Made by a program: the position numbers and the translations under genes. Below, one piece after another: positions 10,496 to 63,503 of a DNA stretch of 64,000 bases (positions within the stretch are counted from its first letter, which is position 1; each line of letters opens with the position of its first letter). The stretch covers positions 288,001 through 352,000 of the forward strand of contig JBGANV010000005.1 in assembly GCA_044222185.1 (NCBI GenBank), written 5' to 3'. The DNA comes from Planctomycetota bacterium. Lineage in GTDB: Bacteria > Planctomycetota > GCA-002687715 > CAIWVZ01. The notes below the pieces were generated by a model, which was not told the origin of the DNA, did not search any database, and was given only the letters and a program-made list of their open reading frames with translations.

Positions 10496-10498
10496 TTC

Positions 10499-16175: not shown

Positions 16176-16257
16176 GTGGATGACGCGCGCCGAACCGCCG
16201 CTTCGAGGAGAGGCGCAACGCCCCTGCGGGTCTCCGAGCCGGGGGCGGCGCGCAGCA

Positions 16258-16860: not shown

Positions 16861-17128
16861 GCGAGGGATGGGCCCATCGTAACCGCGCCCCGCGCAGCGG
16901 GGCTCCGCCGGCCGACCGCGTCTGCCGGGCGCGAACGCCCGACGCGGTGCGCAGGGTGCCGCACGCCGAATGTGCCTGCGCAGGAAACTTCGTCTGCGGC
17001 CGGTCGCCGTCTCAGCCGTTTTCGAAGCGAAGTTGACGCAGCCGGGCGCGGGCTGCGCATTCGGGATGACGGGGTGGCGCGCGTGGCGCCCCCGACCCGA
17101 TCCAACTCAATCGACACAAGGTGACCTC

Positions 17129-25045: not shown

Positions 25046-25048
25046 GCG

Positions 25049-25774: not shown

Positions 25775-25884
25775 GAATCGCCGAGTGGCGCCTCGGCCGG
25801 CGCTTCTAACACCGGTCGATCAGGGCCCGGAACGCGGCGCGGTCCGAGACCACGTGATGCGACGGCGCTCGATCGACCTTCACA

Positions 25885-37900: not shown

Positions 37901-40900
37901 TCAGCGTCCGCCGCGGCGCAAGTCCGCCGAACGCTCGAAGAAGCGCCAGTATGTCGCGAGGAGCGACGCGTCGGGCGGCGGGCAGCGGATTCCAAGACGC
38001 GAGAGTTCAGCCGTCGTCCGAGGACAGGTGACCACGGGTGCATCGGCCGTCGCGTCGCCACCGTCCGCCTCCTCGAGCACGGCGAGAACGGAGTGGAGGT
38101 CGCTCGCTTCGTCCGCGGCCGCGCGCTCGCGCAGCCGTCGCCGCCAGACGTCGAGCGGGACCGCTCGAAGCACGACGCCCATCGCCGCCAGCTCCGCGAC
38201 GATCGCATTCGTCGAGACGGTGGCCGGGTTCATCAGGTGCCAGGGCCCGGACGAACCCGAACCCTCGCCGGCGATCCGCACGATGGCTTTGGCGACGAAG
38301 TCCACGGGCGTGAGATCCACGTCTGCCGGCACCTCGGGAGTGCACCCGAGCTCGACGCAAGCCGCGAACAGTCGATTGACGAAGTCCTCGCGGTTGCATG
38401 CGCCGGTGCGCGAACTTCCCGTGAGCCGCCCCACGCGGTGGATGGTCACGGGGAGGCCGCGCATCCCGGCCGCGCGCACCAGTTCCTCGGCGACCCACTT
38501 GGACTGCGCGTAGCTGCCGGTGACGTCGACGGCGTCCGACAGGGTTGCACCTTCGTCGACCCGGGTGCCTCGACGTGACGGGCAGTCGAAGACGCCGATG
38601 GACGAGACGTGGTGGAGCGGCTTCGCGCGGACGCGCGATGCAAACCGGAGAACCTCGATCGTGCCGCCGACGTTGGTCGGGGCGAGGACGGCGTACGGCG
38701 CGGCGAAGCTCGTGGAACCGCCCGCATGGATGATGGCGTCGCAGTCGGTCGAAAGGCGCTCGTGATGACGTTCATCCAACCCGAAGCGCGGCTCGTCGAG
38801 GCGTCCCACGACGACGTCCACCCGCTCCTCCAGGCCGCTGCAATCCAGCGCGAACCGCGCGAAGGCGGCGTGGAGGCGCGCGAGCCCATCGGCCTGCGAC
38901 GCCGCACGCACGAGACACGCGACACGCGCCGTCGTCGCTTCGAGCAGTTCGCGCAGCACGAATGCACCGAGGAAGCCCGTCGCGCCGGTGACGAACGGGA
39001 ACATGAGGCGAGGTCCGGCGTCAGTCCTCGGCGGCGCCGCCACGACGTCGTCCGGCAACACGACCGCGGCACGGAGGTCGACGCCGGGCGTCGGCGCGAC
39101 CGGCGTTCCGGTCACGCCACGCTCCAACAGCGAGGCGAGCCCCGAGACCGTCGGGTGATCGAACAGCTGGCGCAGGAGCACACGCGAACCCGTCGCTTCG
39201 CGGAGCGCTGCCACCACCCGAAGGGCTGCCAGCGAATGGCCTCCCAGCGAGAAGAAACTCTCGTGCCGCGCCGGCAACGCGCACCCCAGCGCCCGTGAGA
39301 ACGCCCGCGCCACGGTCCGCTCGACTTCGCTGAGCGAACCGTCGTCGTGCGTCGATCGCGAGAGTGCCGACGGGGCACGCGCCAACGCCCTCCGGTCGAT
39401 CTTGCCGGTGACCGTGATCGGAAAGGCGTCCAACACGAGGACCTCCGCGGGGACGGACGCGGCTGGAAGCTGCGCCGACAGTCGCCCGCGGATTCCGTCC
39501 GGCGTCGCCGGAACGCCCTCGCGCACGATGCAGCAGGCGCGCAAGGACACCTCGCGCTCCGCCGAAGCCACGGCGACCACGACCGCGTCCGCGATCGACG
39601 GATCCGTTCGCAGGAGCGCCTCGACCTCGCGCGGCTCCACGCGGTGACCACGGATCTTCACCTGGTCGTCGATGCGCCCGAGCCATTCCAGTTGGCCGTC
39701 GGGTCGCCAGCGCACGCGATCCCCCGTCTCGTACGCACGCGCGCCCGGCTCGCCGATGAAGGTGTCCGCAACGAATGACGTGGCCGTCGCGGCGGGGTCG
39801 TTCCAGTAGCCGCGCGCCACGCCGCGGCCGCCCAGATACAACTCGCCGACGGCGCCGACCGGTGCGGGTGATCCCACGTCATCCAACACCCAGGCGCGGA
39901 CGCCGGGGAGAGGCCGCCCGATGGGGATGGCGTCGTCCGGGACGTGCGGGCCGGCCGTCAGGTCGGAGAGCGTCGCCACGATCGTGCCCTCCGTGGGCCC
40001 GTACGTGTTGACGAGGCGCACGCGACTCCCGACGACGTCACGCCAGGCGCGGACGGCCTGCGGCGATGCCGCCTCGCCCCCGAGGATCACGAGGCGCACG
40101 GAATCGGGCACCGAGCAGTCCCCCAATGGCAGCGCGCGGACAAGCTCGTGCCAGTACGACGTGGGAAGGTCGAGCACGGTGATCCTCTCGGCCGCCACGC
40201 GAATCCAGAACTCGCACGGGTCGAGCGGCCATCCGTCGTCGCGGATCACGAGCGTCGCGCCGGCCACGAGCGTGCACCAGATCTCCTCGGCACTCGCATC
40301 GAACCCGGTGGACGCGAACTGGAGGACTCGGTCGCCGCCCTCCAACGCGAACGAGGCGCGCGCGGTCGCCACGTAGGAAGCGAGGCCGGCGTGCGTCAGC
40401 TCGACGCCCTTGGGTTCGCCCGTAGTCCCGGACGTGAAGTAGATGCACGCCGGTTCCGTGAGCCCGTCGGTTGCGCGGGGCACCGCTCGCACGACCGATG
40501 CGCCCGGGGGTGCATCCAGGTACGCCACGCGGAACTCGCCGCCGATCGCCCCGCGCGACGCCCTGGGCGCGAGGATCAACGCCGGCGCAAGACGCGCCAG
40601 CAAGACCTGCTGCCGCGCGAGCGGCCAGCTGGGATCGAGCGGGACCGCGACGCGTCCGACTTGCCAGACGGCCAGCATCGCCGCCGCGAAGTCGGCCGAC
40701 CGGCCCAGCGTCACCGCGACGGGTCCAGGCTCGGGCGACGCGACCTCGATCAGCCTCGTGATCTCGTCGACGCGGGCGAGGAACGCGCGTCCGCTCGTTC
40801 GCGAACCGCGATCCTCGACGATCGTCGCGTCGGGGGCCCGCGAGCACCGGCGCATCACGGCGGTCACGAGGTTCTCCCCCGGCAGAGCCGGCCCTCCGTC

Positions 40901-43900
40901 GGCGAGCGCACGCCACCGAGAAAGCCCATCGCCCGTCAACACCCCGATCGAGCCCACGCGGCGGGCTGGATCCGCGGCGAATGCCCGCAGGACCTCCTCC
41001 ACCTGCTCCAGCACGCCGTCCCCGATGCGCCCATCGACCCTGGCCGGATCGAACTGGACGCGGAGCTCCCACGCCTCGCCCGGGACGGCGACGAACGTGA
41101 CCGGATAGCTCGTCTGCTCCCGCGCGATCGTTCGCAGGACCGAGATCCCCTCCGGCGTCGTGCCGGCGGCGCGATCGATGGGGTAGTTCTCGATCACGAC
41201 GAGGCTGTCGAAGGGAGCCCGACCGAGCGGCATGCCAGCCGCTCGCTGGACGTCGCTCATCGGCGTCCAATCGAAGGGTCCAGCCTCCACCTGCTCGTCG
41301 TGGACCGCGCGGATCCAGGAGCCCGCGGGCTCGTCGGCATCGATCCGGACTCGGACGAGCCGCGTGTTGATGAACAACCCGACGCGTTCGTCGAAACCCT
41401 CCACCTCCGGGCTGCGTCCGGAGACGGTGGCGCCGAAGAGCACGTCACGACATCCCGTCCAGGCGGCGAGGACGCGCGCCCATGCCGCCAGGACGACGGA
41501 TGCAGGCGTCGCACGGACCTCCTGCGCGAGCCGCTCGAGCGATCGCGTGGCGTCTCGGTCCAGCCGCATCGTGCGCTCGACGACTCCGCGCGACGCATCC
41601 GCGGGCGCTCCGGCGGGAAGTCGCGGCGGAGGCTCGAATCCGTCGAAGCGCGAACGCCAGAAATCGTGGGCGCGGGCCGAGTCCTGGCGTCCGAGCCAGG
41701 CGATGTAATCACGCACCCGACGCATCGGCGTCGGTCGTGGCGCGCGCGCGAGGCGTCGCCCGTCGTACGTGCGGACGACGTCACGAAGGAGAATCGGCAT
41801 CGACCACCCGTCCAGGATGAGGTGATGCCAGGTGAACACGAGCACGTGCCGGACCTCGCTCGAACGGATCAGCGCGCACCGCAAGAGGGGCGCGCCGTCG
41901 AGCACGAAGCCACGCCGCCGGTCCTCCTCGAGGAAGGCGTCGAGCCGGCTCTCCCAATGGGCCTCCCCCCGCCAATCGAGCTCCACCCACGGGACGTCGG
42001 GCGTCCGGCGGATCAGAAGGCGCGGCTCGGCGAGGCCGTCCGCGATGACGGAGGCGCGCAACATCTCGTGCAAGGACGCCACGTGTTCGAAGCTCGCTCG
42101 GAACGCACCGGCGTCGAGCGGTCCCTCGAGCACGCTCGCGAGCTGTTGGAAGTAGGCGCGGGACTCGGGCTCGAGGAGCGCGTGGAAGTACATGCCCTGC
42201 TGCGTCGACGTGAGGGGCAGCACGTCGGTCAGATCCGGCGCCCTTTCACACACGACGCGCAGCTCGTCCTCGGTGAGTCGGGCCAGCGTGAAATCCGCGG
42301 GCACGAGACAGTCCTTCGGCCGAGTGGCCGCAACCTCGGCGAGCTCGCGCAGGCTCGCGAGCACGTGCTCGCGGAACGCGACCATCGACGAAGGGTCGGA
42401 GACGCCGCAATCGAGGCGCAGCTCGCGAGCCGTACGCCAGACGTTCACTTCCAGCGGATGCGTCGGCCGGTTCGTTGGCCCGCGTGCGACCCGCCCCAGG
42501 TCCAACCCGACGAGCGAAAGCTCCTTCACGTCGCCGGCGGGCGGCGCGACCTCGCCCAGGTCGTTGAAGAGGATTCTCGCCGGCGCGCCGGCGAGCACAC
42601 CGGTCGACGCCAACCCGCGACCGGCACCGCGCGCCGCCCGCAAGGCCGATTTCACCGCGCGCAGCGCCGCGCTTGCGGACGATACACCCGTCACCGAGAT
42701 GCGGTGCACGTCCGTGAGCCAGCCGACGACGTGCGAGAGATCCAGCCCCGTGCCTTCGCGTCCATGGTGCTCGACGTCGACGCTCACCGTCGACGTCGGG
42801 TCGGCGGACGCAAGCGCGTGAACGACGGCCGCGAGGATGACTTCCTCGATCGACGCGTGCGACGCCGCCCGGCCCGCACCTCGCAGCACGGATGCGACGT
42901 CAGCCGGGACGTCGATGCGCACGGGAATCGCGCGCGGCAGATCCAGCACGCGTGACGCGGGGGCGACGGCCGTCGAGGGCTCCGCCCGTTCCGCGAGGCG
43001 CCGCGCATGCTCGGCGTGGGTCGCCGGCCCGCCGGCGTCGAGGGCTCGGATGTCCGGAGATTCGCCACGGACGTCGGTCACGAGCTCGTCGAGGAGGAGT
43101 CTCCAGGAGACACCGTCGACGACCAGGTGATGAGCGATGCAGACGAGTCCGCACATCCGGAGGTCGACGGCGCGGAACCAGATCGCGTGGAGGAGCGGGC
43201 CGTTCTCCACGTCGAGCGACGCGTGGGCCGCATCGACCGCAGTCTGCACGACCCCGACGACGGATTCGACGCCACCCTGAAGCGACCCCAGGTCGCTCCA
43301 CGCGGGCGCGTCGCGATCGACGAACGATTGCGTGACCTCGCCTCCCCGTCGTCGGAAGCGCGCCCGAAGCTGCGGATGCCGTTGAACCAATCGACCGAGC
43401 GCATCGCGCCATCGCCCCGAGCGTGAATCGAACGGCACCTCGAGTCCGACGACCTGGTTCCATTGGTTCGGCTCCGCGAAGCCTTGCGCGAAGAACCAGC
43501 GTTGTATGGGAGTCAGGGGAACGTTCTCGCCGGGGCGTACGTCACGGATTTTCGGCGATGGTGTCTCCTCGCGGGCTGCGAGGGACAGACGAGCGAGTCC
43601 GGCGACGGTCGGATGCTCGAACACGTCGCGCGTCCCCAGAGCGATCCCCTCCGCCCGCGCTCGGCTCACGATGCGTAGACTCGAGATGGAGTCCGCACCG
43701 ATCGCGAACAAATCGTCCGTCACGCCCACGCGTGCGCGACCGAGGACCGCGCCCACGATCCGCGCGAGCTGCGCCTCGCGCGGTGTGCGGGGCTCGACGC
43801 CGTCTCCGACGACGCCGCCCGCGAGATCCATCGACGTCTCGCGCTCGATCCGTGCTCGATCCACCTTGCCGTGAGCCGTGAGCGGCAGCGTATCCACGTG

Positions 43901-46900
43901 CACCACTCGCCGCGGCAGCGCCACGGGCGGCAGCAGGCGCCGCAACCGATCCTGGATCGCCGCGGCATCGAGCCCATCTCCCCGCGTGACCCACGCGACG
44001 AGCTGCGCCTCGCCGTTCGGCGGCCGCGCGACGGCCACCGCGCACCCGCTGGCGCCCGTGGCGTCGCGAATCGCCGCCTCCACCTCGCCCAGCTCGATGC
44101 GATGTCCGCGGAGCTTCACTTGCTCGTCGCGACGTCCGAGAAACAGGAGCGAGCCATCGCGCCGCCAACGACAGACGTCGCCGGTGCGATACAGCCGTGC
44201 GTCTCTCGCCGTGGTGAACGGATCCGGCACGAAGCGGTCGGCCTCCGACGGCTGCGCGTGCAAGTAGCCCTCGGACAGCCCCGCGCCGCCGATCCACAAC
44301 TCGCCCGCGACCCCCATCGGCGCGAGGTGGCGGTCGTCGTCCAGCACCCAGGCGCTCACGCCTCGCATGGGGCGCCCGATCGGCACCGTGCCATCCGGTG
44401 CACAGTCCCCCCGCGAGACCTCGTGCGCGAGGCATCCGACCACGGCCTCCGTCGGGCCGTACTCGTTGAAGACCCGCGCGCCCGTCGCGTCCATCCACGA
44501 GATCGCGGAGGCGTGGGGCAGGGCTTCGCCGCCCACGACGAGCACGCGGGTCCAGTGGCGGCAGTCCTCGATTCCACGGATCGCCGCGAGCGCGTCCAGG
44601 TGGGACGGGGTGAGCTTCACGAACGACAGGTCGCGGTGACGACGCATGGAAACGATCAGCGGCTCGATCCCCTCGCCGTCGACGACGAACACGGTCCTGC
44701 CGCAGACGAGAGGTACGAAGAGACTCGTGATCGTGAGGTCGAAGCCCAGGGATGTCACGAGGGGCGCGCCCACCCCGTCCGCGCCGCCATAGAGGCGCGA
44801 GGCGTTCTCGACGTAACGAAGCAACCCGCGGTGGCCGACGACGACGCCCTTCGGCCGACCGGTCGACCCGGACGTGAACATCACGTAGGCCGCGTCGTCC
44901 GGCGCCACGGCCGGGAGCGGAGCGCCGAGGTCGGTGATCGGTTCGCCCACGCCGTGGACGCCTGCGAATGCTCCCAAGGCGAACTCGGCGCAGGTCGCGG
45001 GATCCGAGCCGATGACTGCCCTGGGCCCACTCGCGTTCGCGATGCGCGACCGCCGCTCCTGCGGATAGGAAGGGTCGAGAGGCACGAACGCAGCGCCGGC
45101 GCGCATCGCGGCGAGCACGGCAATGACACATTCGACCGACCGCGGCAGGTCGACCAGCACGCGATCGCCGCGGCAGACGCCGGCCTCGCCCAATCGACGC
45201 GCCAGTGCGCCCGAGCGTCGCCACAGTTCGTCGAACGTGACGTCACCCTGCGAAGACGAGATGGCTACCGCGCTCGCGCGTGACGCGCAGACGCGTCCGA
45301 TCACGTCCAGGATCGTCTCCGAGGAAACCGGCGCTTCCTCGCCTCGCGAGAACCCCACGAGTCGCCGTTGCTCATCAGCGCCCACGTGGCACGCGTCCTC
45401 CACGGCACGGTCCGGCGCCGCGAGCGCGGCCTCGATGAAGTGCACCCAGCGTGCCTGCCATGCGTGGATCGTGTCGTCGTCGAACAGGTCGGCGTTGAAG
45501 ACCCAGGTCGACGTCCCGGCGGCGTCGTCGGCGACGAACACGGTCAGATCGAATCGGGCGGGAACACGACCCGGCGACAGGACGCACACCTCGCATCCCT
45601 CGATGGTGAGCGCCCCGAGCGGCGCGGCCCATGCTTCGAACGCGACCTGGAAGATGGGCGTGCGAGTCAAATCGCGGGGCGGCTCGATCGCACGCACGAT
45701 GCGATCGAACGGCACGTTCCGATGATCGATCGCGAAGGCCAGCACGCGCATCGCCTCGCTCACGAGGTCGCGGAACGACCGGTCCGGCGCCGGCCGCAGG
45801 CGAAGCGGCAGCGTGTCGACGCAGAAGCCGACGAGGTCATCGTCATCGCCTGGCCGCCGGCTCGAAACGGACGTGCCCAGCACGAGATCGTCGACGCCGG
45901 CCGCCCGCCCCATGACGACCGCGAACGCGGCGAGGCCCAATGCGAACGGCGTCGCGCCGAGCTCGGCGGCGACCTCTTGCAACCGGGCCGCGACCACGGC
46001 TCCCAGCGCGACGCGGATCTCGCGCCCACGATCCGTCTGGAACGCCGGGCGCCGACGATCGAGGGGCAGATCGAGTTGCAACGGAGCACCGGCGAGTTCT
46101 CCGACCCACGGCGCGGGGTCGGCATCATCCGCGCCCATCGCGTGCCGCGCGAAGCTCGCGAACGATGGTGCGGGAGGCAAGTTTGGCACCTGCTTCGCGC
46201 GCATCGCCGCCGTGAGCGCGGCCAGCTCGCGCGCGAGCACGCCGATGGAGGTGCCGTCCGTGACGAGGTGATGCTGCGTCACGACGACCACGTGGTCATC
46301 CGCCGCGATGCGGAGGCACACGACCCGCAGCAGAGGTCCGGACTGCAGGTCGAATGGCCGCGACGCCTCGGCGGCGATCTCGTGGTCGAGCTGCGTCGGA
46401 TCGATCGCGGCCTCGCGCCACGAGCAACTTTCGCTGGCGTCGATCCGAGCTGCGAATTCGCCGTCGCGAGCCTCCACCCGGAGACGCAGGGCATCGTGGC
46501 GCACGACGAGAGCATCCCACGCACCATGCAGGATCGAGGTGTCCAGAACGCCGCGCACGCGGACGACCGACTGGACGCCATAGGTCGTCGAGCCCGGGTG
46601 CAGCCGGTCCAGGAACACGAGCCTGCGTTGCGCCGCGGTGAGGGGCACGATCGCCAGGTCCCCGCCCGACCCATCGGCGGCACGCGGCGTCGGCGTGCGA
46701 TCGCGCAGGCCTTCGATCAGCCGGGCCAACGCGCCGACGGTGGGCGCGGCGAAGAACGATCGCATGGGCAGATCGACACCGAATCGTTCGCGCGCGAGGT
46801 ACTTGATGCGGGTCGCGCCCAGCGAATGGCCTCCCAGCCGGAAGAAGTCGGCGTCGCGAGCGACGACCGCGTCTTTCGGGAGCACGGACTTCCACCAGCC

Positions 46901-53462: not shown

Positions 53463-56400
53463 GCAGGGCCTCCGGAGCGCGGCGCCGAGCCGCGATCGAG
53501 GAGAGCTTCTACCGCCGCCACCTGTGCGCGCAACGCGGCAGCGAGGTCGTCGATCGACGTGGACGCCGCGGGCGGCATCTCCGCCGGCTGCGCCACGGGG
53601 CGCGTCGCCGGAGCCGCCTGATCGATCCTGCGTTCGATGGCCTCGAGCAGGGACTCGACGTCCGGGTGGTCGAACAACAGCGTCGTTGCCAGGCGACAGC
53701 GCAGTTGGGATTCCAGCCGGTTGCGGAATTCGACGGCGAGAAGTGAGTCCACGCCCAGGTCCGCGAAACGCCGCGTGGGATCCAGCTCCAGCGGTTTCTG
53801 GAAACCGAGCACGCGACCGAGTTGCTCTCCGACGAAGCGATGGAGCAGTCGTCGACGATCGTCGCCGACGGCCGCGAGGACCTGCGCACCGAGCCCGTCG
53901 GCCGCAGGCGAGCCGCCCGCAGGCGCTCGCTCGCCGGCGACGGCGCCGTCGACGACCTCCAGGAGCGGCAGGATCGCGGGAGGCGCCGCGGAGCGCAGCC
54001 GGGTCCAATCGACGTCGAGCACGGCCACGTTCGCGGCATCGCCACCGATCACTCGAGCCATGGCGTCGAACGCCGCGGACGCGTCCAGCATCCCGATGCC
54101 GCTCGCCGAGAACCGGGCCCGGTTGCGATCGGCGACCGCGCTCGCCATTCCGCCGCCGCCGATGGGGCCGAACGCGACGGCCGTCGCCGGAAGCCCCGCG
54201 GTTGCGAACGCGGACGCCAGCGCATCGGCGGCAGTGTTCGCGCAGGCGTACGGCGCCTGGCCGGCCGAACCCAGGAGCCCGGACTGAGACGTGAAGACCA
54301 CGAGCGACTCCACCGGCTCGCCGCGAAGCGCGTCGCGCAGGTTCCAGAACCCGTCGATCTTCGAGGCGAGAACGGGGGGGAACCGCTCCGGGTCGAGCCC
54401 GACCAGCATGCCGTCGTCGACGACGCCGGCGAGGTGGAATGCGCCGACGATGGGGACGTCGCCCTTCAGCGCCGACATCTCCGTGATGAGTTTGCGGCGG
54501 TCGGCCACGTCGGCGACGACGACACGAACGACGACACCGCGGGCCCCGAGCGCGTCGATGAGAGCGCGGACCTCCGGCGCGGGTTCGCGACGCGCCACCA
54601 GCACGAGGCTCCGTGCGCCGCGATCGGCGAGCCACGTTGCGAGGCGCAGCCCCAGGCTGCCCGTCCCGCCGGTGATGACGTAGGCGCCGTCCGAACGTAC
54701 ATCACGCAGAGCGCCGGGCGACGACCCGGTCCGTTCGTCGAGCCGCAAGACCACCTTGCCCACCGAGCGACCGTGGGCAAACGCGCGCAGCACCTTCGGA
54801 GCGAGCGTCACGTCGCAAACCGTCACGCGCGGCGGAGCCCACTCTCCCCTCGCGAACCGATCGAGGAGCCGTTCGAGACGACGGCGCTGGAGGGCCGGAT
54901 CGCCCGCCGCGGCCTCCGCCTGCTCGACCACGTGGTAGGCGACGTCCGGGCGGACCTGCCTGGCCTTCTCGGGGCTCCAGATTCCGAGCTTGCCGATCTC
55001 GATGAACCGGCCCCGCGGTGCGAGGCAACGGAAGCTCGCATCGATCGCGTCCCCCGCGAGGCAGTTGAGCACGACGTTCACGCCGCGTCCGCCAGTGGCG
55101 GTGAGGATCCTCTGGCGGAAGGTCGTGTCGCGCGACGAGTAGACGTGTTCGATTCCCTGGCGGCGGAGAAGCGGGACCTTCGCCGCCGACGCCGTCGCGA
55201 GGACGATCGCGCCCGCGCGGCGCGCGACGGCGATGGCCGCCTGCCCGACGCCGCCGGCCGCCGCGTGGATCAAGACGGTCTCGCCCGATTTCAGCTGCGC
55301 CAACTCTTCCAACGCCACGACGGCCGTGAGGTACGTGGTCGGGATCGCCGCCGCGTCGGTGAACGACAACGCACCCGGAAGCGCGAACACCTGCGAACGG
55401 TCGACCGTCACTTCCGACGCCAGACATCCGACCGTCGACACCAGCACCCGGTCGCCGATCGCAACACCTGCGCATCCCGCGCCAACCTCGCTCACGACGC
55501 CCGCGGCCTCGTAACCAAGCGGTGCGCCCTCGGCTGACGCGATCCCGAGGGTTTCGTGGAATGGTCGCATGGACCCCAGCACCGTGAGGCCGTCGCGGAA
55601 GTTCAGACCAGCGGCCGCAAGCGTCACTCGGACCTCGCCGTCCCGCGGCGCTCGTCTGGGGACCGGCGCGAGGTGGAGGCCGTCGAAGTCACCGTAGGAC
55701 GAAAGTTGCAACCGCCATGGGCCGTCCGGCCGCTGGAGGCGGTCTCGGCCGGCCTTGGGAGCGCGCTCGAGACGAGGCGCGAAGCGCAGCCCGGCCCGAC
55801 GCGCGATCTGGCATCCGTCATCGGAGGCCAGCGCCTCGCGCAGCACGAGGCCAGCTTCGTCCTGTTCGACGAACGGATCCAGGTCCAGATGAAGGGGGAC
55901 GAGGTCCGGGTGCTCGTGGGCGACGACCGTCGTGAATCCCGCGAAGAGCGCGCCCTCGGGATCGACGACGGGCGTCACGTCGTCGACGGCCCTGGTGCCG
56001 CGTGTGACGAAGATCAGTCGTGCCGCGTCAGACCCCAGACGTGCGAGGGCACGCGTGGCGAGGGTCGCGATCGTGCAGAGCTCGCGACGGCGCGACGCAT
56101 CCGGCGCAGCGAAGGCGAACCCGCCGCCGTCGAGGCCCCGCAGGATCACGGCGCGCGCTCGCGGCGCCTGGATCGCGGCGAATTCTCCGATTGCCGAACC
56201 GATCCGCTCGAGATTCGCGCCCGCCGCGACCTCCGTGACGGCGGCGCCCCGCTCCCGTAGTTGCGTCGAAAGCCTGGTGCCCAGCCCGCTCGCATCGTCG
56301 ATCACGAGCCAGCTCTCGCCGTCGAGCTTCGCTTCGCCCGTCACCGCGGCGACTTCGTGCCAGCGGGTGAAGCGGACGAGATCCGTGTTTGCGGTCGCCG

Positions 56401-59400
56401 GCGGCTGGAAGCGCTCGCGCACCGCCGGCCGAAGCTTCAAGCCCGTCAGGGTGACGTCGCCGGAGCCGTCGCCCGCGACGAATGCGACGCGCGCCACGCG
56501 CACCGCCGAGTGAACCGTCGCCGAGTCCATGTCGACGCGGACGCGTGCACGCGATCCGAGATTGCCCCGCACCACGATGCTTCCGATCGAGATCGGCAGC
56601 CACGGCTGGGTCTCCTCCAGGCCCAACGCCGCGACGACGGTCTGCAAGCCGCCGTCCACGAGCGCCGGGTGAGCCGAAAACCCCGCCGGCGAGCCCGCCT
56701 CCGCGGGGAGTTCGAGGCGCGCATCGGAGGCATGCTGCGCCGTCGCGAGCTCGCGCACGGATCGGAAGGCCGGCCCGTACTCCAGTCCACGCGCCAGGAG
56801 CTCCCGGTCGAACGCCTCGAGATCACACGGAACGGCGTCCGTCAGACCGGTGAGTTCGGCGGTCCCCGCACCCACCGAACGGCTGATGCGTGCGCGCACG
56901 TGCGTCGTCCACGGCGATGGCTCGGAGCCTCCGATCGGCTGCGAGACGACGGCGACCTCGCGCTCGCCGCTCTCGAGGCGCCGCACGACGGTCTGTATCG
57001 TCGATTCGCCAGCGAGCCGAAGGGGTGCCTCGATGTTGAAGTCCTCGAGAACCACGTCGCCGGCACCATCGGTGCGACGCACGGCGGAGACGCACAGCTC
57101 GATGAATCCCGCGGCCGGAAACACCACCGCGCCGAAGACCCGGTGGTCGGCGAGCCAGCGCGGGCTCTCCCGCGAGACCGTGGTCGTGAACACGCGAACG
57201 TTCGCATCGATGGCGACGGATCGGATCTCGGTCCCGAGCAGATCCGCGGTCGCATCGGCCGCGGCGCCGCGAAGGGTCTGCCGTGGCGGGAACCAGAACC
57301 TCTCGCGCGCGAAGGGCGTCGTCGGCAGTGCGACGCGATGCCGCACCGGATCCCGGGCAACGCGCGCCCAGTCGACGGGCGCGCCTGCGAGGAACAGCCG
57401 CGCGCACGCATCCGCGACGTCGCCGCGATCGTCACCGGCGGTGCGGAGAGGCGAGATCCATCGGATGTGCGCGCCGCCGAGAAATGCCTTCGCCATGGAC
57501 GTGAGCGTGGGCTTCGGCCCGATCTCGACGGCCACCGTGGCACCCATCTCGGCCACCCGCTGCATGGCAGCATGGAAGCGCACGGCCGAACGGAGCTGCT
57601 CGAGCCAGTACTCGGGTGTCGCGAAGACCGACGCATCGGCGTCTGGCGCGGCGGTCGAGACGATGGGCGTCGTCGCGCGGCCAAACGAGACGGCTGACAG
57701 CTCGCGCCGGAACGGTTCGATCACCGGATCCATCAGCGGCGAGTGGAACGCATGCGAGACGTCGAGGCGGCGATTGGGCAGCCGGCGACGATCGAGCTCG
57801 AGAACGATCCGGTCGATCGCCTCGAGGCTTCCCGATACGACGACCGAGCGCGGGCCGTTCATCGCGGCGACGGCGGCGCGGTCGCGAAGCGGCTGAACGA
57901 GCGGGGCGACGTCCTCCAGGGCGGCCGACACGGCAACCATGGCGCCTTCAGGCGACAGCTGACGCATCAAGCGGCCACGCGCCGCCGCGAGTCGCAGCGC
58001 ATCCTCGATCGTGAAGACGCCGGCCCGCGCCGCCGCGGCGAATTCGCCGATGCTGTGCCCGAGCATCACCGAGGGCTCGATGCCGAAGCTCGCCAGCAGC
58101 TCGGCGAGTGACCACTCGAACGCGACGAGCGCCGGCTGGGTGATCTCGGTCGCGGATAGCTGGTCAGACCGGGCTCCCCACAGGAAATCCGTGAGTGGCG
58201 CCGGGATCTCGTTTCGAAGGATCCGGCTGCACCGCTCGATCGCGTCGCGAAACACCTCGAACGTTCGGTGAAGTTCGCGACCCATGGACGCGTACTGCGA
58301 CCCCTGCCCGGTGAAGAGCCATGCGACCTTGGGTGGCGTCGATGCCACGCACGCAGCGTCGTCGGATCCGGACGTGGAAGCCAGAGCCTGCATGAACGTC
58401 TGCAGATCGTGCTGGGACCGGACGACTCGCGCCGCTCGCACCGGCTGCGGGGCACGGCCTGCCGCGAGCGTGAAGCACGTCGCGCCGACGTCCACCGGGC
58501 CGCGACTCACGACTTCCAGGAGGTTCGATGCGGTGGTGCGGAGTCGATCGCGCGTGGGGGCGGAGACGACGGCGACGAACGGTCCCGCGTCGTCCGCCAC
58601 GGGCTGAGCCGCGGCGTCTGCCGGGGACTCACCGATGACGATGTGACAGTTCGTTCCGCTGAAACCGAACGAGCTGATGCCGGCGACGCGCGGCCCGCCG
58701 GACCCGGGCCAGGCGACTGTGGCGCGCGGGATCGCGATCGGCATGCGCGACCAGGCGATGTGCGGGCTGGGCTCTTCGCAATGGAGGTGCCCCGGGATGA
58801 CGCCATTTCCCACGACCTGGACCGCGCGTATGAACCCGGCGATCCCGGCGGCGGTCTCCAGGTGGCCCAGGTTCGTCTTCACGGACGCGACGAGGAGCGG
58901 CCGCCCCGGCGGGCGCGAATCCGAGAACACGGCGTCGAGCGCGTTGATCTCGATGGGATCGCCGAGCGCCGTCCCCGTGCCGTGGGCCTCGATGAATCCT
59001 ACGGCCGCCGGTGTCAGGCGCGCGTCCTCGAGGGCGGCGCGAATCAACCGTTCCTGGGCGATGCCGTTGGGCATCGTGAGTCCGCCGCTCGCTCCGTCCT
59101 GGTTGACGGCGGAACCGAGGATGACCGCGAGGACCGAATCGCCGTCGCGCCGCGCATCCGACAGGCGCTTCAAGTACACGAGGCCGCAGCCCTCGCCGCG
59201 ACCGTAGCCGTCGGCCGCGGCCGAAAACGTCTTGCACCGCCCGTCGGGCGCGAGCATGTTCGCTTGTGAAAGTGCGATCGACGACAGCGGGTCGAGCATC
59301 AAGCTGACGCCGCCCGCGAGCGCCGCGCGGCACTCGCCGGCGCGCAGGCTCCGCACCGCGAGATGGATGGCGACGAGTGAGCTCGAGCACGCGGTGTCGA

Positions 59401-60277
59401 GGGCGATCGCAGGACCCGTCAACCCGAGCGTGAACGCGATCCGGCCCGCGGCCGTCGAGAGTGCATTGCCCGTGGCGTAGTAGGTCGACACGTCCGGCGG
59501 CGCGCGGTTCGTCTGGGAATTGAAATACTCCGATTCGCGGAGTCCGATGAAGACGCCCGTCTCCGAGCCTGCGAGCGACGACGGGGCGTGACCCGAGCGC
59601 TCGATCGCTTCCCACGCGATCTCGAGGAGGAGGCGCTGCTGCGGATCGAGCTGCGACGCCTCGCGTGGGGAGATCTTGAAGAACGCGGCATCGAAGCGGT
59701 CGACACCGGCGATGAACCCGCCGGAGCGGCAGCAGGTCTTTCCGGGAGCGCCGCGGACGGGGTCGAAGATCGCCGCGACGTCCCAGCGGTCCGCGGGAAC
59801 GTCGACGATGCCGTCGCGCCCATCGAGCTGCATCTGCCAGAACGCCGACGGATCATCCGCGCCGCCGGGAAATCGGCACGCCATCCCGACGACGGCGACG
59901 GGATCGTCGACCAGTTGCGTGTTTGCGGGCGCGTCCTTCGCGGTCGACGGGTCCGGCGCGTTGCATCCCATGACGTCGGCGAGCGCGTCCGCGAGCTTCG
60001 CCGGAGTCGGGTAATCGAATACGAGCGTCGTGCGAAGCGCGGCGCCCGTGAGTGGCTCGAGGCGGGTCTTGAAGTCGACGGCTTGCGACGAGTCGAAGCC
60101 GAAGTCCTGGAACGTCCGCGCCGGATCGATGGCGTCCCCCTCGCGCATCCCGAGGAACGCCGTCATCTCGACGGCGAGCAGTCCCAGGATCCGCTCCCGT
60201 GCTGCGGCTGGCGCCAGTCCACGCAGAGACTCAGCCCACCGGGCTGCGGGGCTGGCGGATCCCGCTTCGTCCGTCAT
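53459..60277 (-). CDS. Type I PKS ACP-KS-AT-DH-ER-KR-ACP
   Basis: N-terminal ACP FGFDSS; KS DTACSS; AT GHSIGE/HAFHS (malonyl type); DH LADHRVFGAVVFP; ER IHAAAGGVG; KR TGGTGSLG, VVDD; ACP LGVDSL. Confidence 0.93.
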   Translation of the reverse strand: MTDEAGSASPAARWAESLRGLAPAAARERILGLLAVEMTAFLGMREGDAIDPARTFQDFGFDSSQAVDFKTRLEPLTGAALRTTLVFDYPTPAKLADALADVMGCNAPDPSTAKDAPANTQLVDDPVAVVGMACRFPGGADDPSAFWQMQLDGRDGIVDVPADRWDVAAIFDPVRGAPGKTCCRSGGFIAGVDRFDAAFFKISPREASQLDPQQRLLLEIAWEAIERSGHAPSSLAGSETGVFIGLRESEYFNSQTNRAPPDVSTYYATGNALSTAAGRIAFTLGLTGPAIALDTACSSSLVAIHLAVRSLRAGECRAALAGGVSLMLDPLSSIALSQANMLAPDGRCKTFSAAADGYGRGEGCGLVYLKRLSDARRDGDSVLAVILGSAVNQDGASGGLTMPNGIAQERLIRAALEDARLTPAAVGFIEAHGTGTALGDPIEINALDAVFSDSRPPGRPLLVASVKTNLGHLETAAGIAGFIRAVQVVGNGVIPGHLHCEEPSPHIAWSRMPIAIPRATVAWPGSGGPRVAGISSFGFSGTNCHIVIGESPADAAAQPVADDAGPFVAVVSAPTRDRLRTTASNLLEVVSRGPVDVGATCFTLAAGRAPQPVRAARVVRSQHDLQTFMQALASTSGSDDAACVASTPPKVAWLFTGQGSQYASMGRELHRTFEVFRDAIERCSRILRNEIPAPLTDFLWGARSDQLSATEITQPALVAFEWSLAELLASFGIEPSVMLGHSIGEFAAAARAGVFTIEDALRLAAARGRLMRQLSPEGAMVAVSAALEDVAPLVQPLRDRAAVAAMNGPRSVVVSGSLEAIDRIVLELDRRRLPNRRLDVSHAFHSPLMDPVIEPFRRELSAVSFGRATTPIVSTAAPDADASVFATPEYWLEQLRSAVRFHAAMQRVAEMGATVAVEIGPKPTLTSMAKAFLGGAHIRWISPLRTAGDDRGDVADACARLFLAGAPVDWARVARDPVRHRVALPTTPFARERFWFPPRQTLRGAAADATADLLGTEIRSVAIDANVRVFTTTVSRESPRWLADHRVFGAVVFPAAGFIELCVSAVRRTDGAGDVVLEDFNIEAPLRLAGESTIQTVVRRLESGEREVAVVSQPIGGSEPSPWTTHVRARISRSVGAGTAELTGLTDAVPCDLEAFDRELLARGLEYGPAFRSVRELATAQHASDARLELPAEAGSPAGFSAHPALVDGGLQTVVAALGLEETQPWLPISIGSIVVRGNLGSRARVRVDMDSATVHSAVRVARVAFVAGDGSGDVTLTGLKLRPAVRERFQPPATANTDLVRFTRWHEVAAVTGEAKLDGESWLVIDDASGLGTRLSTQLRERGAAVTEVAAGANLERIGSAIGEFAAIQAPRARAVILRGLDGGGFAFAAPDASRRRELCTIATLATRALARLGSDAARLIFVTRGTRAVDDVTPVVDPEGALFAGFTTVVAHEHPDLVPLHLDLDPFVEQDEAGLVLREALASDDGCQIARRAGLRFAPRLERAPKAGRDRLQRPDGPWRLQLSSYGDFDGLHLAPVPRRAPRDGEVRVTLAAAGLNFRDGLTVLGSMRPFHETLGIASAEGAPLGYEAAGVVSEVGAGCAGVAIGDRVLVSTVGCLASEVTVDRSQVFALPGALSFTDAAAIPTTYLTAVVALEELAQLKSGETVLIHAAAGGVGQAAIAVARRAGAIVLATASAAKVPLLRRQGIEHVYSSRDTTFRQRILTATGGRGVNVVLNCLAGDAIDASFRCLAPRGRFIEIGKLGIWSPEKARQVRPDVAYHVVEQAEAAAGDPALQRRRLERLLDRFARGEWAPPRVTVCDVTLAPKVLRAFAHGRSVGKVVLRLDERTGSSPGALRDVRSDGAYVITGGTGSLGLRLATWLADRGARSLVLVARREPAPEVRALIDALGARGVVVRVVVADVADRRKLITEMSALKGDVPIVGAFHLAGVVDDGMLVGLDPERFPPVLASKIDGFWNLRDALRGEPVESLVVFTSQSGLLGSAGQAPYACANTAADALASAFATAGLPATAVAFGPIGGGGMASAVADRNRARFSASGIGMLDASAAFDAMARVIGGDAANVAVLDVDWTRLRSAAPPAILPLLEVVDGAVAGERAPAGGSPAADGLGAQVLAAVGDDRRRLLHRFVGEQLGRVLGFQKPLELDPTRRFADLGVDSLLAVEFRNRLESQLRCRLATTLLFDHPDVESLLEAIERRIDQAAPATRPVAQPAEMPPAASTSIDDLAAALRAQVAAVEALLDRGSAPRSGGPA

Positions 60278-60873
60278 GTCGCCGCCGGTGCGTCGCTGCC
60301 GGATCGGCGAGCCGAGACGGCGCCCGTGGTCCTGCGATCGACGATCGCGAGCGTCACCTCGCCCTGCGCGAGTCCGCCCGCGTCATCGCGGAACCGGCAG
60401 CTGGTCCGCAGGAAGATGAAACGCCCGCGACTGGAGACGTGGTCGATTCGGACCTCGCCGACGAATCGGTCCGGCGAAAGTTGCCGCTTGAAGACGCTGG
60501 AGAACTCGTGGATCAGCACGTCGGGAAGTTGGCGGCGACGGTACTCGTCGATCGTCATGTCGCTGAGCGACGGGACGAGCTTGCTCACCACGCATTGCGC
60601 CATCAGCACGTAGACGAGCTGGTTGTAGCAGATGTTGAATTCGACGGAGTTGAAGTGCCCCGTGGCGTCGATGTAGCAGGACTCGGGGATCGAGAACTCT
60701 CCGGACGCGCGCGCCAGCGCCACGGGGTCGAGCGTGAAGTCGTCGGGCTGGACGTGCGGAACGTCGACGACGGCCGAGCGCAGGTAGCGACACTCCGGGC
60801 GATAGGGCGCGAGGATCGACGCGAGGAGGTCGGGTTCGACCACGATCCGCGGACCATTGGGGGGGAGCGACAC
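60274..60873 (-). CDS. fcoT: FcoT/ScoD-like thioesterase
   Basis: LAPYRPECRYL, GEFSIPESCYIDATGHFNSVEFNICYNQLVY, QLPDVLI: the FcoT (Rv0098) family signature. Confidence 0.88.
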   Translation of the reverse strand: MSLPPNGPRIVVEPDLLASILAPYRPECRYLRSAVVDVPHVQPDDFTLDPVALARASGEFSIPESCYIDATGHFNSVEFNICYNQLVYVLMAQCVVSKLVPSLSDMTIDEYRRRQLPDVLIHEFSSVFKRQLSPDRFVGEVRIDHVSSRGRFIFLRTSCRFRDDAGGLAQGEVTLAIVDRRTTGAVSARRSGSDAPAAT

Positions 60874-60881
60874 GGATCACC

Positions 60882-61739
60882 TCACTTCGGGTAGAACGGC
60901 AGGCCGTCGTAGATGCCGATGCGGAAGCTGACGCTGGGTTCTCCATGGAGGCTCGAGCCTGCCATGTGGAGAAGCGGGCGGTTGTCCCACAGGAGCACGT
61001 CGCCCGCACGCCACGTGTGCGTGTGCACGAACCGCGGCTGCTCCGCGAATGCCGTGAGCTGCGACAGGGCCTCCGTCGAGGCTTCGTGCGACAGCCCCGC
61101 GAAACCGACGGTGAATCCGGAACTGACGTAAAGACTCGGGGCGCCGGTGACGGGATGCCGGATGACCGTCGGGTGCGTCACGGGCGGAGCCATCTTCGTG
61201 AACTCCTCCATGAGTTCGAGGAGTGACTTGTCGACGTCACAGGGCTGAACCTTGTATCGCAGCTTGGCGTCGTGGATCGCCCGCGTGCCGTCGGCGAACG
61301 CGCGCAGCGCCGGTGGCAGTTCGCGATAGACGCGCGCCATGTCGATGTAACGGGTCTCGCGACGCGTTTCGGGCAGCGTGTGCGGATGCAGCATCGTCAG
61401 CGGCAGCGGGTCGTCGAAGAACTGGCAGTCGGTGTGCCAGTATCGGCCGGTGCCCGCAACGCCGATCTTCTTGCCGTCGAGCGGAACGTTGGCGGAGACG
61501 AAGACCTCGGGATGATCGGGGTGATGGTAGTTGGGCTGGAAGTAGATCTGCGGAGTCCCGAACTGCTTCGCGCAGGCGACGTACTCGGTCAGCGTCAGCG
61601 TCTGATCCCGAAAGACGATCAGCTTGTGCGCGTAGAGAGCGGCCTTCGCTTCCGCCAGCTCGGAGGCGGTCATCCGGCGGACGTCGACCCCGGTGATCTC
61701 GCTGCCGATGTCGTCTGGCGGTGGCGGTTGGATCCTCAT
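60882..61739 (-). CDS. scoE: ScoE/Rv0097-like Fe(II)/2-oxoglutarate dioxygenase (isonitrile synthase, TauD fold)
   Basis: YHHPDHPEVFVS, GVAGTGRYWHTDCQF, YKVQP, GDVLLWDNRPLLH; 8 bp upstream of the FcoT homologue. Confidence 0.85.
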   Translation of the reverse strand: MRIQPPPPDDIGSEITGVDVRRMTASELAEAKAALYAHKLIVFRDQTLTLTEYVACAKQFGTPQIYFQPNYHHPDHPEVFVSANVPLDGKKIGVAGTGRYWHTDCQFFDDPLPLTMLHPHTLPETRRETRYIDMARVYRELPPALRAFADGTRAIHDAKLRYKVQPCDVDKSLLELMEEFTKMAPPVTHPTVIRHPVTGAPSLYVSSGFTVGFAGLSHEASTEALSQLTAFAEQPRFVHTHTWRAGDVLLWDNRPLLHMAGSSLHGEPSVSFRIGIYDGLPFYPK

Positions 61740-61925
61740 GGACCTGTGCTTTCTCGTTGGTCTCGCGGGTCGGTCGATTGTAGGGGTTGGTCAGGGGCTC
61801 GGCGAGGGCCCGCGATGCGGTGGCCGAAGCGCGACGCATGCGCGTTCCACGGCGCCGTCGTGGTAGAACCCGCGCGCCGGCCCGGATTCGGGTGCGGCCG
61901 TCGTCGACCGCGCGGAGCCAGATCG

Positions 61926-63503
61926 GTGCCAACGGATCCATCCACCACGACCTTGTCCGAGCTGATCCGCGCGCAGGCGCAGGTTCGCGGAGACCGGATC
62001 GCGCTGATCGTCGGTGCGAGAACCGTGAGCTTCCGCGACCTGAACGCGTCGGCGGACCGCGTCGCGTCCGCCCTCACGAGATGTGGCTGCGGCAGAGGCA
62101 CGCGCGTGGCGGTCCTCGCCCGCGACTCGGAGATCACATTCGCGATCCTGTTCGGCGCAGCCCGCGTCGGCGCCGTGCTCGTGCCGATCAACTGGCGGCT
62201 GACGGCGCCGGAGATCGGGTTCATGCTCGAGGACTCGCAGGCACGGATTCTCTTTCTCGACGCGGAGTTTTCGGCGCGCGTTGCCGCGACCGTCGGGCCG
62301 ACGGCCGCGCCGATCCATCGTGTCGTCCTGTACGGAGCAACCGACGACGCCGCGAGTTTCGATGCGTGGGTCGCACGATCGGCGCCCCCGGCGAACGTGC
62401 CGGAACCCACGCCCGACGACGTGGCCGTGCAGATGTACACCTCGGGCACGACGGGGAACCCAAAAGGCGTCCTCCTTCCCCACCGGAGCCTGTTCGCCGT
62501 GATGCGCTCGCTGCACGCGCACGGGGATCCGTGGATCGGTTGGTCGGACCGCGACGTGGGACTGCAGGCACTCCCGTCGTTTCACATCGGCGGGCTGTGG
62601 TGGGCCGTGACGACGCTCTTCGTCGGCGCGACGAACGTCGTGCTGCCGGCGTTCGCCGGCTGGCAGGCCCTCGACCTCATCGCGCGCCACCGGGTGACGA
62701 AGACCTGCTTCGTCCCGTCGATGATCCAGTTGATGCTCGCGGAGCCGAACGCTGCCACGGCCGACGTCTCGTCGCTCGACACCGTCGTCTACGGAGGCTC
62801 GCCCATTCCGACGACGCTGCTCGAACGCGCGCTCGCACGATTCCGCTGTCGGTTCTTCCAGATCTACGGCCTGACGGAGACGGGCAACACGGCCGTGTGC
62901 CTGCGTCACGAGGATCACGTGGGGCCCGAGCCGAGCCGGCGACTGGCGGCGGGCCGCCCTTACCCCGGCGTCGACGTGAAGTGCGTAGATGCGAGCGGTG
63001 CGACTCTGCCGCCGGGCGCCATCGGCGAAATCTGCATCCGATCGCCGGCGAACATGATCGGCTACTGGAATCGCCCCGACGCCACGCGGGATACGCTGCG
63101 GGACGGGTTCGTCCACACGGGCGACGCCGGAACCATCGACGCCGACGGCTACGTGTTCATCTCGGACCGAGTGAAGGACATGATCATCCATGCCGGGGAG
63201 AACGTGTATCCAGCCGAGGTGGAGAACGCGCTGTCGAGTCATCCGGCAATCGCGGAAGTTGCGGTGATCGGGATTCCGGACGAGCGGTGGGGCGAGGCGG
63301 TGAAGGCCCTCGTCGTCCTCGTTCCCGGCGCATCCGTCACGCCGCAGGAACTCGCGCGTCATGCCCGCGCGAGGATCGCCGACTTCAAGGTTCCCAAGTC
63401 CGTGGACTTCGTCACCAGTCTGCCGCGGACTCCGAGCGGCAAGCTCCGCAAGGCGGAGCTGCGCGAACCGTACTGGCGCGGCCGCGAGCGCCGCGTCAAC
63501 TGA
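61926..63503 (+). CDS. ScoC/SfaB-like acyl adenylating ligase
   Basis: QMYTSGTTGNPKG, PSFHIGGLWWA, IYGLTETGNTAVCL, HTGDAG, PRTPSGK. Divergent from scoE; GTG start after GGAG is uncertain. Confidence 0.85.
   Translation: MPTDPSTTTLSELIRAQAQVRGDRIALIVGARTVSFRDLNASADRVASALTRCGCGRGTRVAVLARDSEITFAILFGAARVGAVLVPINWRLTAPEIGFMLEDSQARILFLDAEFSARVAATVGPTAAPIHRVVLYGATDDAASFDAWVARSAPPANVPEPTPDDVAVQMYTSGTTGNPKGVLLPHRSLFAVMRSLHAHGDPWIGWSDRDVGLQALPSFHIGGLWWAVTTLFVGATNVVLPAFAGWQALDLIARHRVTKTCFVPSMIQLMLAEPNAATADVSSLDTVVYGGSPIPTTLLERALARFRCRFFQIYGLTETGNTAVCLRHEDHVGPEPSRRLAAGRPYPGVDVKCVDASGATLPPGAIGEICIRSPANMIGYWNRPDATRDTLRDGFVHTGDAGTIDADGYVFISDRVKDMIIHAGENVYPAEVENALSSHPAIAEVAVIGIPDERWGEAVKALVVLVPGASVTPQELARHARARIADFKVPKSVDFVTSLPRTPSGKLRKAELREPYWRGRERRVN

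Follow-up and report, generated by a model that had tools for sequence, protein, structure and literature searches.

The subject of this work is a biosynthetic gene cluster of a planctomycete from wastewater sludge, which lies intact in the stretch of DNA that we analysed (64,000 nucleotides of contig JBGANV010000005.1, positions 288,001 to 352,000 of the forward strand; hereafter the window, in which positions are counted unless another contig is named). The cluster probably consists of a four-part isonitrile cassette, namely an acyl ligase, a carrier protein, a glycine-adding FcoT/ScoD thioesterase and a ScoE-type Fe(II)/2-oxoglutarate oxidase/decarboxylase, which supplies the starter unit to a hybrid polyketide-peptide line made of two polyketide synthases (PKS) and a nonribosomal peptide synthetase (NRPS). 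This reading is built on the gene content, the domain order, the intact catalytic motifs, the clade membership of the dioxygenase and the conserved synteny, all of which were directly observed.

The cluster had been outlined in a preliminary description made from the DNA letters, and it was confirmed to be real. According to the open reading frame (ORF) listing and the translations, five minus-strand genes form an operon of 23.8 kb running from 61739 to 37901: the gene of the ScoE-like, TauD-family dioxygenase (60882-61739, 285 amino acids, aa), that of the FcoT-like, FcoT-family thioesterase (60274-60873, 199 aa), PKS1 (53459-60277, 2272 aa), PKS2 (49908-53462, 1184 aa) and the NRPS (37901-49915, 4004 aa). 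The coupling claimed for them is present at all four junctions: the dioxygenase and thioesterase genes are separated by an 8-bp gap, read from the sequence as TGA GGTGATCC GTG, the thioesterase gene and PKS1 share an ATGA overlap, PKS1 and PKS2 share GTGA, and PKS2 and the NRPS overlap by 8 bp (ATGGATGA). The acyl ligase gene, assigned as the functional counterpart of ScoC, is divergent from the operon as described; it lies on the plus strand at 61926-63503, encodes 525 aa from the GTG at 61926 (an alternative ATG start is found at 61815), and is separated from the operon by an intergenic region (61740-61925). The Pfam matches of these genes are far above chance (7.9e-48 for the TauD family, 1.1e-54 for FcoT, 6.7e-90 for AMP-binding, 2e-92 and 5e-96 for the two ketosynthase domains and 2.6e-236 for Condensation), and the G+C content is about 70% over the entire window.

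The dioxygenase, the thioesterase and the ligase were compared with PDB, NCBIfam and Pfam, the last of which was also used for the PKS and NRPS domains. The best PDB matches of the dioxygenase, near 1e-64, were 6l86 (SfaA-type, 8.1e-65) and ScoE (1.2e-63), followed by the Rv0097-type at about 1e-51, whereas the TauD entries stayed around 1e-30 (1.7e-32 to 9e-30). Among the NCBIfam models the ScoE model (NF049937) was the best with 267.8 bits, and the TauD model reached about half of this value (136.7 bits). The identity of the protein is about 38% to the enzyme of a Streptomyces plasmid and about 27% to E. coli TauD, and it is the sole TauD-family gene product of the 7.08-Mb genome.

A tree of 36 rows was constructed. 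It comprised the window protein, 29 rows drawn from 28 related loci, E. coli TauD (L036) and two further references, the members of a Streptomyces clavifer plasmid cluster (L034) and of a Halotia plasmid (L035), together with four homologs that share about 30% identity and have no thioesterase nearby. All the 31 thioesterase-linked rows, the Streptomyces isonitrile-NRPS member among them, formed one clade (support 98/99, stem length 2.59), and E. coli TauD and the four thioesterase-less homologs remained outside; long branches were flagged in this tree, and the position of the window protein within the clade is not resolved. The TauD part of the phylogenetic comparison proposed in the preliminary description was thus answered, the enzyme falling apart from TauD, in a tree whose actinobacterial reference is the Streptomyces plasmid member and which does not hold ScoE, Rv0097, AecA or SyrP.

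The alignment columns are in agreement with the tree. The roles of the ScoE residues were taken from PMC7949033, PMC11811631 and PMC12946266. In ScoE numbering, the iron triad H132, D134 and H295 is kept in the window protein as H102, D104 and H258, the substrate-positioning Tyr96, Lys193 and Arg310 correspond to Y66, K163 and R273, and Arg157 to R127. H132, D134, R157, K193, H295 and R310 were conserved in 31 of the 31 cassette-linked rows, and Y96 and Y101 in all 30 of those rows that cover them, the window protein included, while Y96, R157 or K193 is altered in E. coli TauD and in the thioesterase-less homologs. At the chain-length positions P1-P3 the window protein has S-G-F and ScoE has E-G-F; Phe at P3 has been tied to short alkyl chains (PMC11811631). 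Additionally, a PF10862 thioesterase gene starts 8 bp past the stop of the dioxygenase gene, and co-occurrence with such a thioesterase served as the filter for isonitrilases in the same paper, where 365 of them were aligned. The ScoE-like nature of the enzyme claimed at the outset is therefore borne out by clade, PDB scores and residues, and its membership in the isonitrile-synthase (ScoE) clade, and not in TauD, is supported at the level of sequence.

The assignment of its neighbour to the FcoT/ScoD family also held, since Pfam, the NCBI ScoD model and PDB agree: the thioesterase scored 184.7 bits on Pfam FcoT (PF10862, 1.1e-54; cut-off 27) and 158.1 bits on the ScoD model (NF049938), and it matched 5wsy at 2e-36 and Rv0098 at 1.7e-23. 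The ligase gave 6.7e-90 on AMP-binding and 3.3e-25 on AMP-binding_C, and 571.6 bits on the NCBIfam model PRK06187 (cut-off 476), which is named long-chain fatty-acid CoA ligase; the NCBI annotation of the ligase in the canonical Streptomyces cluster bears the same name. It shares 48% identity (479 bits) with the protein encoded in the Streptomyces clavifer isonitrile-NRPS cluster and 47.7% with its Halotia counterpart. A ligase of 44-58% identity adjoins the dioxygenase in 23 of the 28 related loci, and no paralog encoded in the same genome scores above 99.5 bits; from this synteny, the identity to the Streptomyces protein and the distance of the paralogs it follows that the ligase travels with the cassette, and the sequences make it the conserved partner of the cassette. 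The ScoC/SfaB-like label first given to it thus holds in respect of the partnership and is not favoured by the PDB scores, which prefer a FadD13-type protein to FadD10 (see below). It is a putative acyl-ACP loader.

The assembly line begins with PKS1, whose domains follow the order ACP-KS-AT-DH-ER-KR-ACP (ACP, acyl carrier protein; KS, ketosynthase; AT, acyltransferase). It opens with an additional ACP, here called ACP0, which had escaped mention in the preliminary description. The Pfam envelopes on the minus strand are: ACP0 about 59963-60190, KS 58778-59905, AT 57488-58321, DH 56411-57241, ER 54746-55642, KR 54161-54688 and the second ACP 53636-53827. The KS has the motifs DTACSS, HGTGT and NLGH of the Cys-His-His triad, the AT has GHSIG and HAFH, the DH HRVFGAVVFP (of the form HxxxGxxxxP), the ER the NADPH motif LIHAAAGGVG, the KR YACAN with the catalytic Tyr, and the two ACPs GFDSS and GVDSL. 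HAFH is taken by us as the mark of malonyl specificity.

PKS2 has the order KS-KR-ACP with intact motifs, and its Pfam domains, again on the minus strand, are the KS at 52230-53354, a KS-AT-type linker at 51849-52223, the KR at 50541-51071 and the ACP at 50034-50231. No Acyl_transf_1 match was obtained in PKS2 by Pfam, a point which the first description did not mention. When PKS2 was aligned with PKS1 by BLAST, the KS and the linker aligned (50% identity) and the alignment then jumped to the pre-KR region; between these parts there is nothing but the short motif LPHHPFDRQRCW (51732-51779), just past the linker at the expected AT site. The similar PKS1 motif, LPTTPFARERFW, is placed after the AT, and we presume that motifs of this type mark the post-AT linker. 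Only two AT domains were found in the genome, one in PKS1 and the other in a FabD-like gene of 314 aa located on a different contig; modular KS domains likewise number only two, both of them in the cluster. For PKS2 no close homolog of the same build was detected; the next best match had 57% identity across 36% of the query length, and PKS2 is most closely related to cis-AT type I PKSs. A trans-AT identity of this module was considered and rejected on account of these relatives and of the lack of a discrete AT in the cluster.

The NRPS has the order C-A-T-C-A-T-E-C-A-T-R, and Pfam found in it four Condensation, three AMP-binding, three PP-binding and one NAD_binding_4 stretches. The coordinates of its domains are slices chosen for the analysis and not model envelopes (C1 48506-49825, A1 46976-48445, C2 45356-46660, A2 43886-45295, E 42326-43645, C3 40916-42235, A3 39416-40885 and R 37919-39025, minus strand). 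The Condensation-family motifs are HHAVIDG, HHLVTDG, HHLVVDGVSW and HHLILDG, the three A domains have TSGxTGxPK, and the carriers have GGHSL, GADSI and GGHSL. The third Condensation-family stretch has the HHxxxDGxSW form and comes after the GADSI carrier motif, two features that we regard as the marks of an epimerase; this E domain, not mentioned before, follows module 2. The terminus is an NAD_binding_4 reductase with GATGFLG and YAQSK. The motifs of the KS, AT, DH, ER, KR, ACP, C, A, T and R domains are thus all intact along the line, and the proposal of two ketide units, a tripeptide and reductive release fits the two KS modules, the three A domains and the terminal reductase.

In order to verify the layout of the operon independently, contigs from other sludge and wastewater studies were placed on it at an identity of at least 95% with few differences. 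Three of the four junctions were bridged by contigs of independent sludge metagenome studies, that of the thioesterase gene and PKS1 by X4 (60127-60639), that of PKS1 and PKS2 by X3 (53172-53600) and X7 (53106-53606), and that of PKS2 and the NRPS by X9 (49869-50050). A 1625-base contig from an independent study spanned the AT-less stretch of PKS2 (50670-52291). Since both the junctions and this stretch were bridged, faulty assembly of a single data set does not account for the layout, and an assembly error as the origin of the AT-less PKS2 was rejected. Short joints in X7 with sides of 20-23 letters were discarded as noise from other organisms. At 51088-51091, inside PKS2, other sludge contigs showed a 3-base insertion and scattered point differences, which are frame-keeping strain variants. 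Furthermore, DNA near-identical to 58000-63500 occurs in bioreactor, activated-sludge and sludge metagenomes, and two studies beyond the possible source hold at least 0.42 of the sampled words.

The cluster is not alone. A protein search with the dioxygenase gave 506 proteins at E <=1e-20 among 1793 candidates; the matches listed (119 besides the query) had 52-63% identity and came, where a source was named, from Planctomycetota, Myxococcota, cyanobacteria and others, and one of them carries the name carboxymethylamino fatty acid dioxygenase/decarboxylase. A scan of species genomes yielded 32 dioxygenase loci, 28 of them with 49-61% identity and four with about 30%. At the 28 related loci, where features were counted by tblastn with the domains of the window, the thioesterase follows the dioxygenase in 26 cases (the remaining two loci stop within the dioxygenase gene), a KS lies downstream in 23 and an A domain in 17, and in most of them there is a carrier domain between the thioesterase and the KS. 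The linkage of thioesterase and ligase to the dioxygenase spans five phyla. The domain set of PKS1 was found in seven loci (KS identity 54-62%), all of them from records labelled as Planctomycetota or Engelhardtia. The planctomycete host, called probable at first, is supported; a genome of the same phylum carries the Engelhardtia mirabilis locus, itself from Planctomycetota. Of the 401 genomes sampled from the phylum, 11 have the thioesterase family, the window's own included (10 of 288 genera), and it is absent from the four other genomes of the window's family.

Cassette, PKS and NRPS are also combined in six or more further genomes of Planctomycetota. A genome of the same order (G074) has the layout of the window minus PKS2, that is ligase, dioxygenase, thioesterase, ACP-KS-AT-DH-ER-KR-ACP and C-A-C-A-E-C-A-R; elsewhere three NRPS modules occur with the E domain absent (G271), two NRPS modules (G105), the NRPS only (G182) or the cassette only (G044). 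The NRPS ends in a reductase domain in all five genomes searched for it, in four of them on the contig of the cassette. In a further Planctomycetota genome (G389, C2:1869000-1908999, comprising L059 and L060) ligase and thioesterase genes accompany an NRPS of two modules with a reductase, a PKS1-like gene lies 8 kb downstream, and no ScoE-like match was found within 40 kb of them.

A different form was observed outside the phylum. In Aquimarina, Pedobacter, Microscillaceae, Methylobacter and Methylocucumis (L009-L016, L018, L021, L024, L026 and L027) the ligase-dioxygenase-thioesterase-ACP cassette is shared, but the proteins downstream of it, about 2000-2100 aa long, start with a KS that has no more than 25-32% identity to the PKS1 domain and continue with an A domain and, in many cases, a reductase. 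Judged by sequence, this Bacteroidota/Methylococcales form is a separate compact KS-NRPS hybrid, whose occurrence in methanotrophs suggests a candidate copper carrier. A Methylococcales contig (L007:3065-4859) has two tandem ScoE-like copies, 51% and 54% identical to the one in the window. In two loci (L002 from 9212 and L020 from 7278 onward) the thioesterase frame continues for 1838 and 2587 aa, which may suggest a fusion to a PKS, although open frames can mislead in high-G+C DNA. Because the layout recurs in Planctomycetota, and another KS form accompanies the cassette in Bacteroidota and Methylococcales, the window cluster belongs to a family that is widespread but uncharacterised, within which the insertion of an AT-less module sets it apart. 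The novelty first claimed for the combined architecture is thus reduced by its recurrence in these Planctomycetota genomes, yet stands in so far as no characterised isonitrile PKS-NRPS hybrid was found in the literature searched.

From these data we infer the chemical steps, their order, the substrates and the product as follows. The divergent ligase would put a short 2-enoyl fatty acid on ACP0, fused to the front of PKS1, where the ScoD-like enzyme would place glycine on C3 and free the N-carboxymethyl-3-amino acid; the ScoE-like enzyme would turn this into the 3-isocyano acid, which might be reloaded on ACP0 by the ligase. PKS1 would then add one malonyl unit with full reduction (DH, ER, KR), PKS2 a second unit with the 3-hydroxyl remaining, and the NRPS three amino acids, the second of which would be epimerised, before the terminal reductase frees an aldehyde or an alcohol. 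With crotonate as starter the acyl part would be 3-hydroxy-7-isocyano-octanoyl. Since PKS2 has no AT its carrier must be charged in trans, for which the PKS1 AT and the cellular FabD are the candidates. The early steps correspond to the isonitrile-peptide route, in which a ligase loads the enoyl acid on a carrier, glycine is added, the thioester is cleaved by the thioesterase, the isonitrile is generated by the oxidase/decarboxylase, and an NRPS incorporates this building block, with reductive release of the product (PMC11811631); extension of isonitrile starters by PKSs has been proposed for amycomicin and aerocyanidin (10.1101/317362). In six related Planctomycetota clusters the sole PKS module is of the DH-ER-KR kind and leaves no enoyl thioester for glycine addition, so the cassette must act before the PKS, and we take it to make the starter.

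Several findings weigh against an isonitrile starter line. The dioxygenase stays below the NCBI ScoE equivalog cut-off (267.8 bits against 400) and the thioesterase below that of ScoD (158.1 against 250), a cut-off that the thioesterase matches in the 11 Planctomycetota genomes all miss. The ligase scores higher in PDB with FadD13 and feruloyl-CoA synthetase (294-297 bits) than with FadD10 (235 bits). His299 is replaced by Ser262 in the window protein, with a His three residues on, and this His is absent from all 29 rows of its clade, the Streptomyces row having His and the Halotia row Tyr. No enzyme from this clade is known to have been assayed. No discrete trans-AT was detected in or near the cluster, nor in the genome beyond the FabD-like gene, so that module 2 may be slow, skipped or dead; and neither a source of the 2-enoyl acid nor a transporter or regulator was visible in the flanks. 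Taken together, clade, residues and synteny place the cassette, as far as sequences tell, within the known kind, from which it departs in the equivalog scores and at His299.

The loss of His299 gives rise to an alternative that we regard as unlikely, namely that the enzyme halts after the first oxidation, the imine hydrolyses to a 3-amino acid and glyoxylate, and the line makes a beta-amino-acyl lipopeptide with a different nitrogen function. His299 is conserved between ScoE and Rv0097 (PMC7949033) and functionally important, forming with Arg157 a mobile pair for 2-oxoglutarate in which it outweighs Arg157 for cleavage of the cosubstrate (PMC7949033, PMC12946266), and the reaction proceeds in two halves with fresh 2-oxoglutarate for each (PMC12946266, PMC13733887); its absence throughout the clade and the scores under the equivalog cut-offs point in the same direction. 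On the other hand, the remaining substrate and metal residues are kept, Arg157, Tyr96, Lys193 and Arg310 included, and non-actinobacterial relatives, which may or may not have His299, do work: the Halothiobacillus neapolitanus isonitrilase accepted methyl and propyl substrates in vitro, and for aerocyanidin an activity of AecA is implied (PMC11811631).

The timing of the cassette could also be different. It is improbable, in our view, that an ordinary fatty acid is loaded by the ligase and first extended by the PKS modules, with glycine addition and isonitrile formation taking place on a late PKS-bound intermediate, so that the isonitrile would stand near the peptide. Such an order would accord with the halt of PKS2 at the 3-hydroxyl stage and with the hotdog fold that the thioesterase shares with dehydratases, and the thioesterase may use a carrier domain other than ACP0. 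It is contradicted by the related clusters without PKS2, which end fully reducing with no enoyl thioester after the PKS, by the carrier domain that stands directly after the thioesterase gene in most loci, like ScoB in the canonical clusters, and by Phe at P3, which predicts a short alkyl chain; moreover, the ScoE-type enzyme takes the free acid in the described pathway (PMC11811631).

That the cluster is decaying, the loss of the AT in PKS2 having broken the line so that no full-length product is formed, appears quite improbable: the lack of an AT and of any relative of the same build would accord with it, but all frames are open and translationally coupled, the KS, KR and ACP motifs of PKS2 are intact, the AT was lost in frame with the flanking linker motifs still there, and other sludge studies have the same AT-less sequence with point differences only. 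Finally, a plain TauD/SyrP-type hydroxylase that tailors a lipopeptide beside a simple thioesterase, as the Pfam family and the name 'taurine dioxygenase' of most database homologs would have it, is disfavoured and hardly credible in view of the tree and the scores that set the enzyme apart from TauD, the residues binding the N-carboxymethyl-amino acid, which are kept here and differ at Y96, R157 or K193 in TauD and the thioesterase-less homologs, and the five-phylum linkage to thioesterase and ligase.

The starter-supplying cassette is hence the reading that we retain. A wider proposal can be put forward only tentatively: a clade of synthases lacking His299 may prime hybrid PKS-NRPS lines as a multi-phylum, uncharacterised isonitrile family, whose products would be mono-isonitrile hydroxylated acyl-peptide aldehydes or alcohols, a new chemotype; the cosubstrate would be bound otherwise than in ScoE and Rv0097, and the cassettes of methanotrophs (Methylobacter, Methylocucumis) might belong to copper carriers outside the actinobacteria. 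For the window cluster itself the copper/zinc link suggested by the preliminary description received no support: a single starter in a colinear line gives one isonitrile, thus a role as metal carrier is not supported, and in the flanks no metal, transport or P450 genes tied to the cluster were found.

The flanking genes (a DUF6600 gene at 36534-37796, a PAP2-like gene, a methyltransferase gene and a 640-aa ORF) were left out of the cluster because they are not conserved beside any related cluster. A phosphopantetheinyl transferase gene, which we count as support for the assembly line, and an MbtH-like gene are found on this contig too, at a distance of 85-95 kb and next to another NRPS. This second NRPS region (G000:C15:251180-263829, 24-37 kb before the start of the window) has a 1716-aa frame with two adenylation matches, and the phosphopantetheinyl transferase and MbtH-like matches adjoining it are the only ones in the genome. 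Elsewhere in the window two pairs of a PF07638-type ECF sigma factor and a serine/threonine kinase were noticed (11829-17106 and 23582-25819), one of the kinases bearing WD40 and FG-GAP repeats, as well as a CobN/Mg-chelatase-like gene of 1377 aa with an ExbB/MotA-like gene immediately after it (6362-11083).

The known products of the ScoE route are small copper/zinc-carrying peptides of Streptomyces and mycobacteria and two fatty-acid antibiotics; in the window cluster and its relatives the same cassette is wired to a polyketide-peptide hybrid line in Planctomycetota, a phylum that, to our knowledge, has yielded very few natural products. The literature search brought up no paper that treats isonitrile clusters of Planctomycetota; the label 'isocyanide-nrp' is in use in fungal papers. 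If the proposed reading is true, the cluster would provide a new scaffold with a clickable, metal-binding functional group, a natural test of the need for the His loop in the two-step oxidation, and a case of an AT-less module within an otherwise cis-AT line. It is therefore a lead for genome mining and enzymology, and no surprise in principle.

Compared with the actinobacterial isonitrile lipopeptide clusters (ScoA-E, Sfa, Mma, Rv0096-0101), of which the Streptomyces clavifer plasmid cluster was examined as the canonical example, the window shares the ligase, the carrier, the FcoT-type thioesterase, the ScoE-type enzyme and the reductase-ended NRPS. It differs in the two PKS modules inserted between cassette and NRPS, in the fusion of the carrier to PKS1, in the three NRPS modules with an epimerase and in a dioxygenase that is about 38% identical to the Streptomyces plasmid one and lacks His299. 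The Streptomyces plasmid also has a P-type ATPase and a PCu(A)C chaperone, whereas no copper or zinc transport genes are near the window cluster, and SF2768 and the mycobacterial kupyaphores have been described as diisonitriles, while the colinear line of the window would install one isonitrile. TauD has in common with the window dioxygenase the fold family, the iron triad and Arg270/Arg310, but it is about 27% identical, stands outside the clade and differs at the R157 and K193 positions, and the context in the window is not that of sulfonate use.

The closest analogy for a polyketide extension is given by the amycomicin (amc) and aerocyanidin (aec) clusters, in which the cassette is likewise combined with PKSs and the isonitrile stands at the far end of the chain (10.1101/317362). 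Their products are fatty acids without a peptide, and the clusters contain P450s for the epoxide, whereas in the window no P450 occurs in the flanks and an NRPS with a reductase follows. The uncharacterised Halothiobacillus neapolitanus cluster resembles that of the window in having a non-actinobacterial isonitrilase beside a PKS (PMC11811631). Thus the assembly line described here joins both known uses of the cassette, that with PKSs and that with an NRPS.

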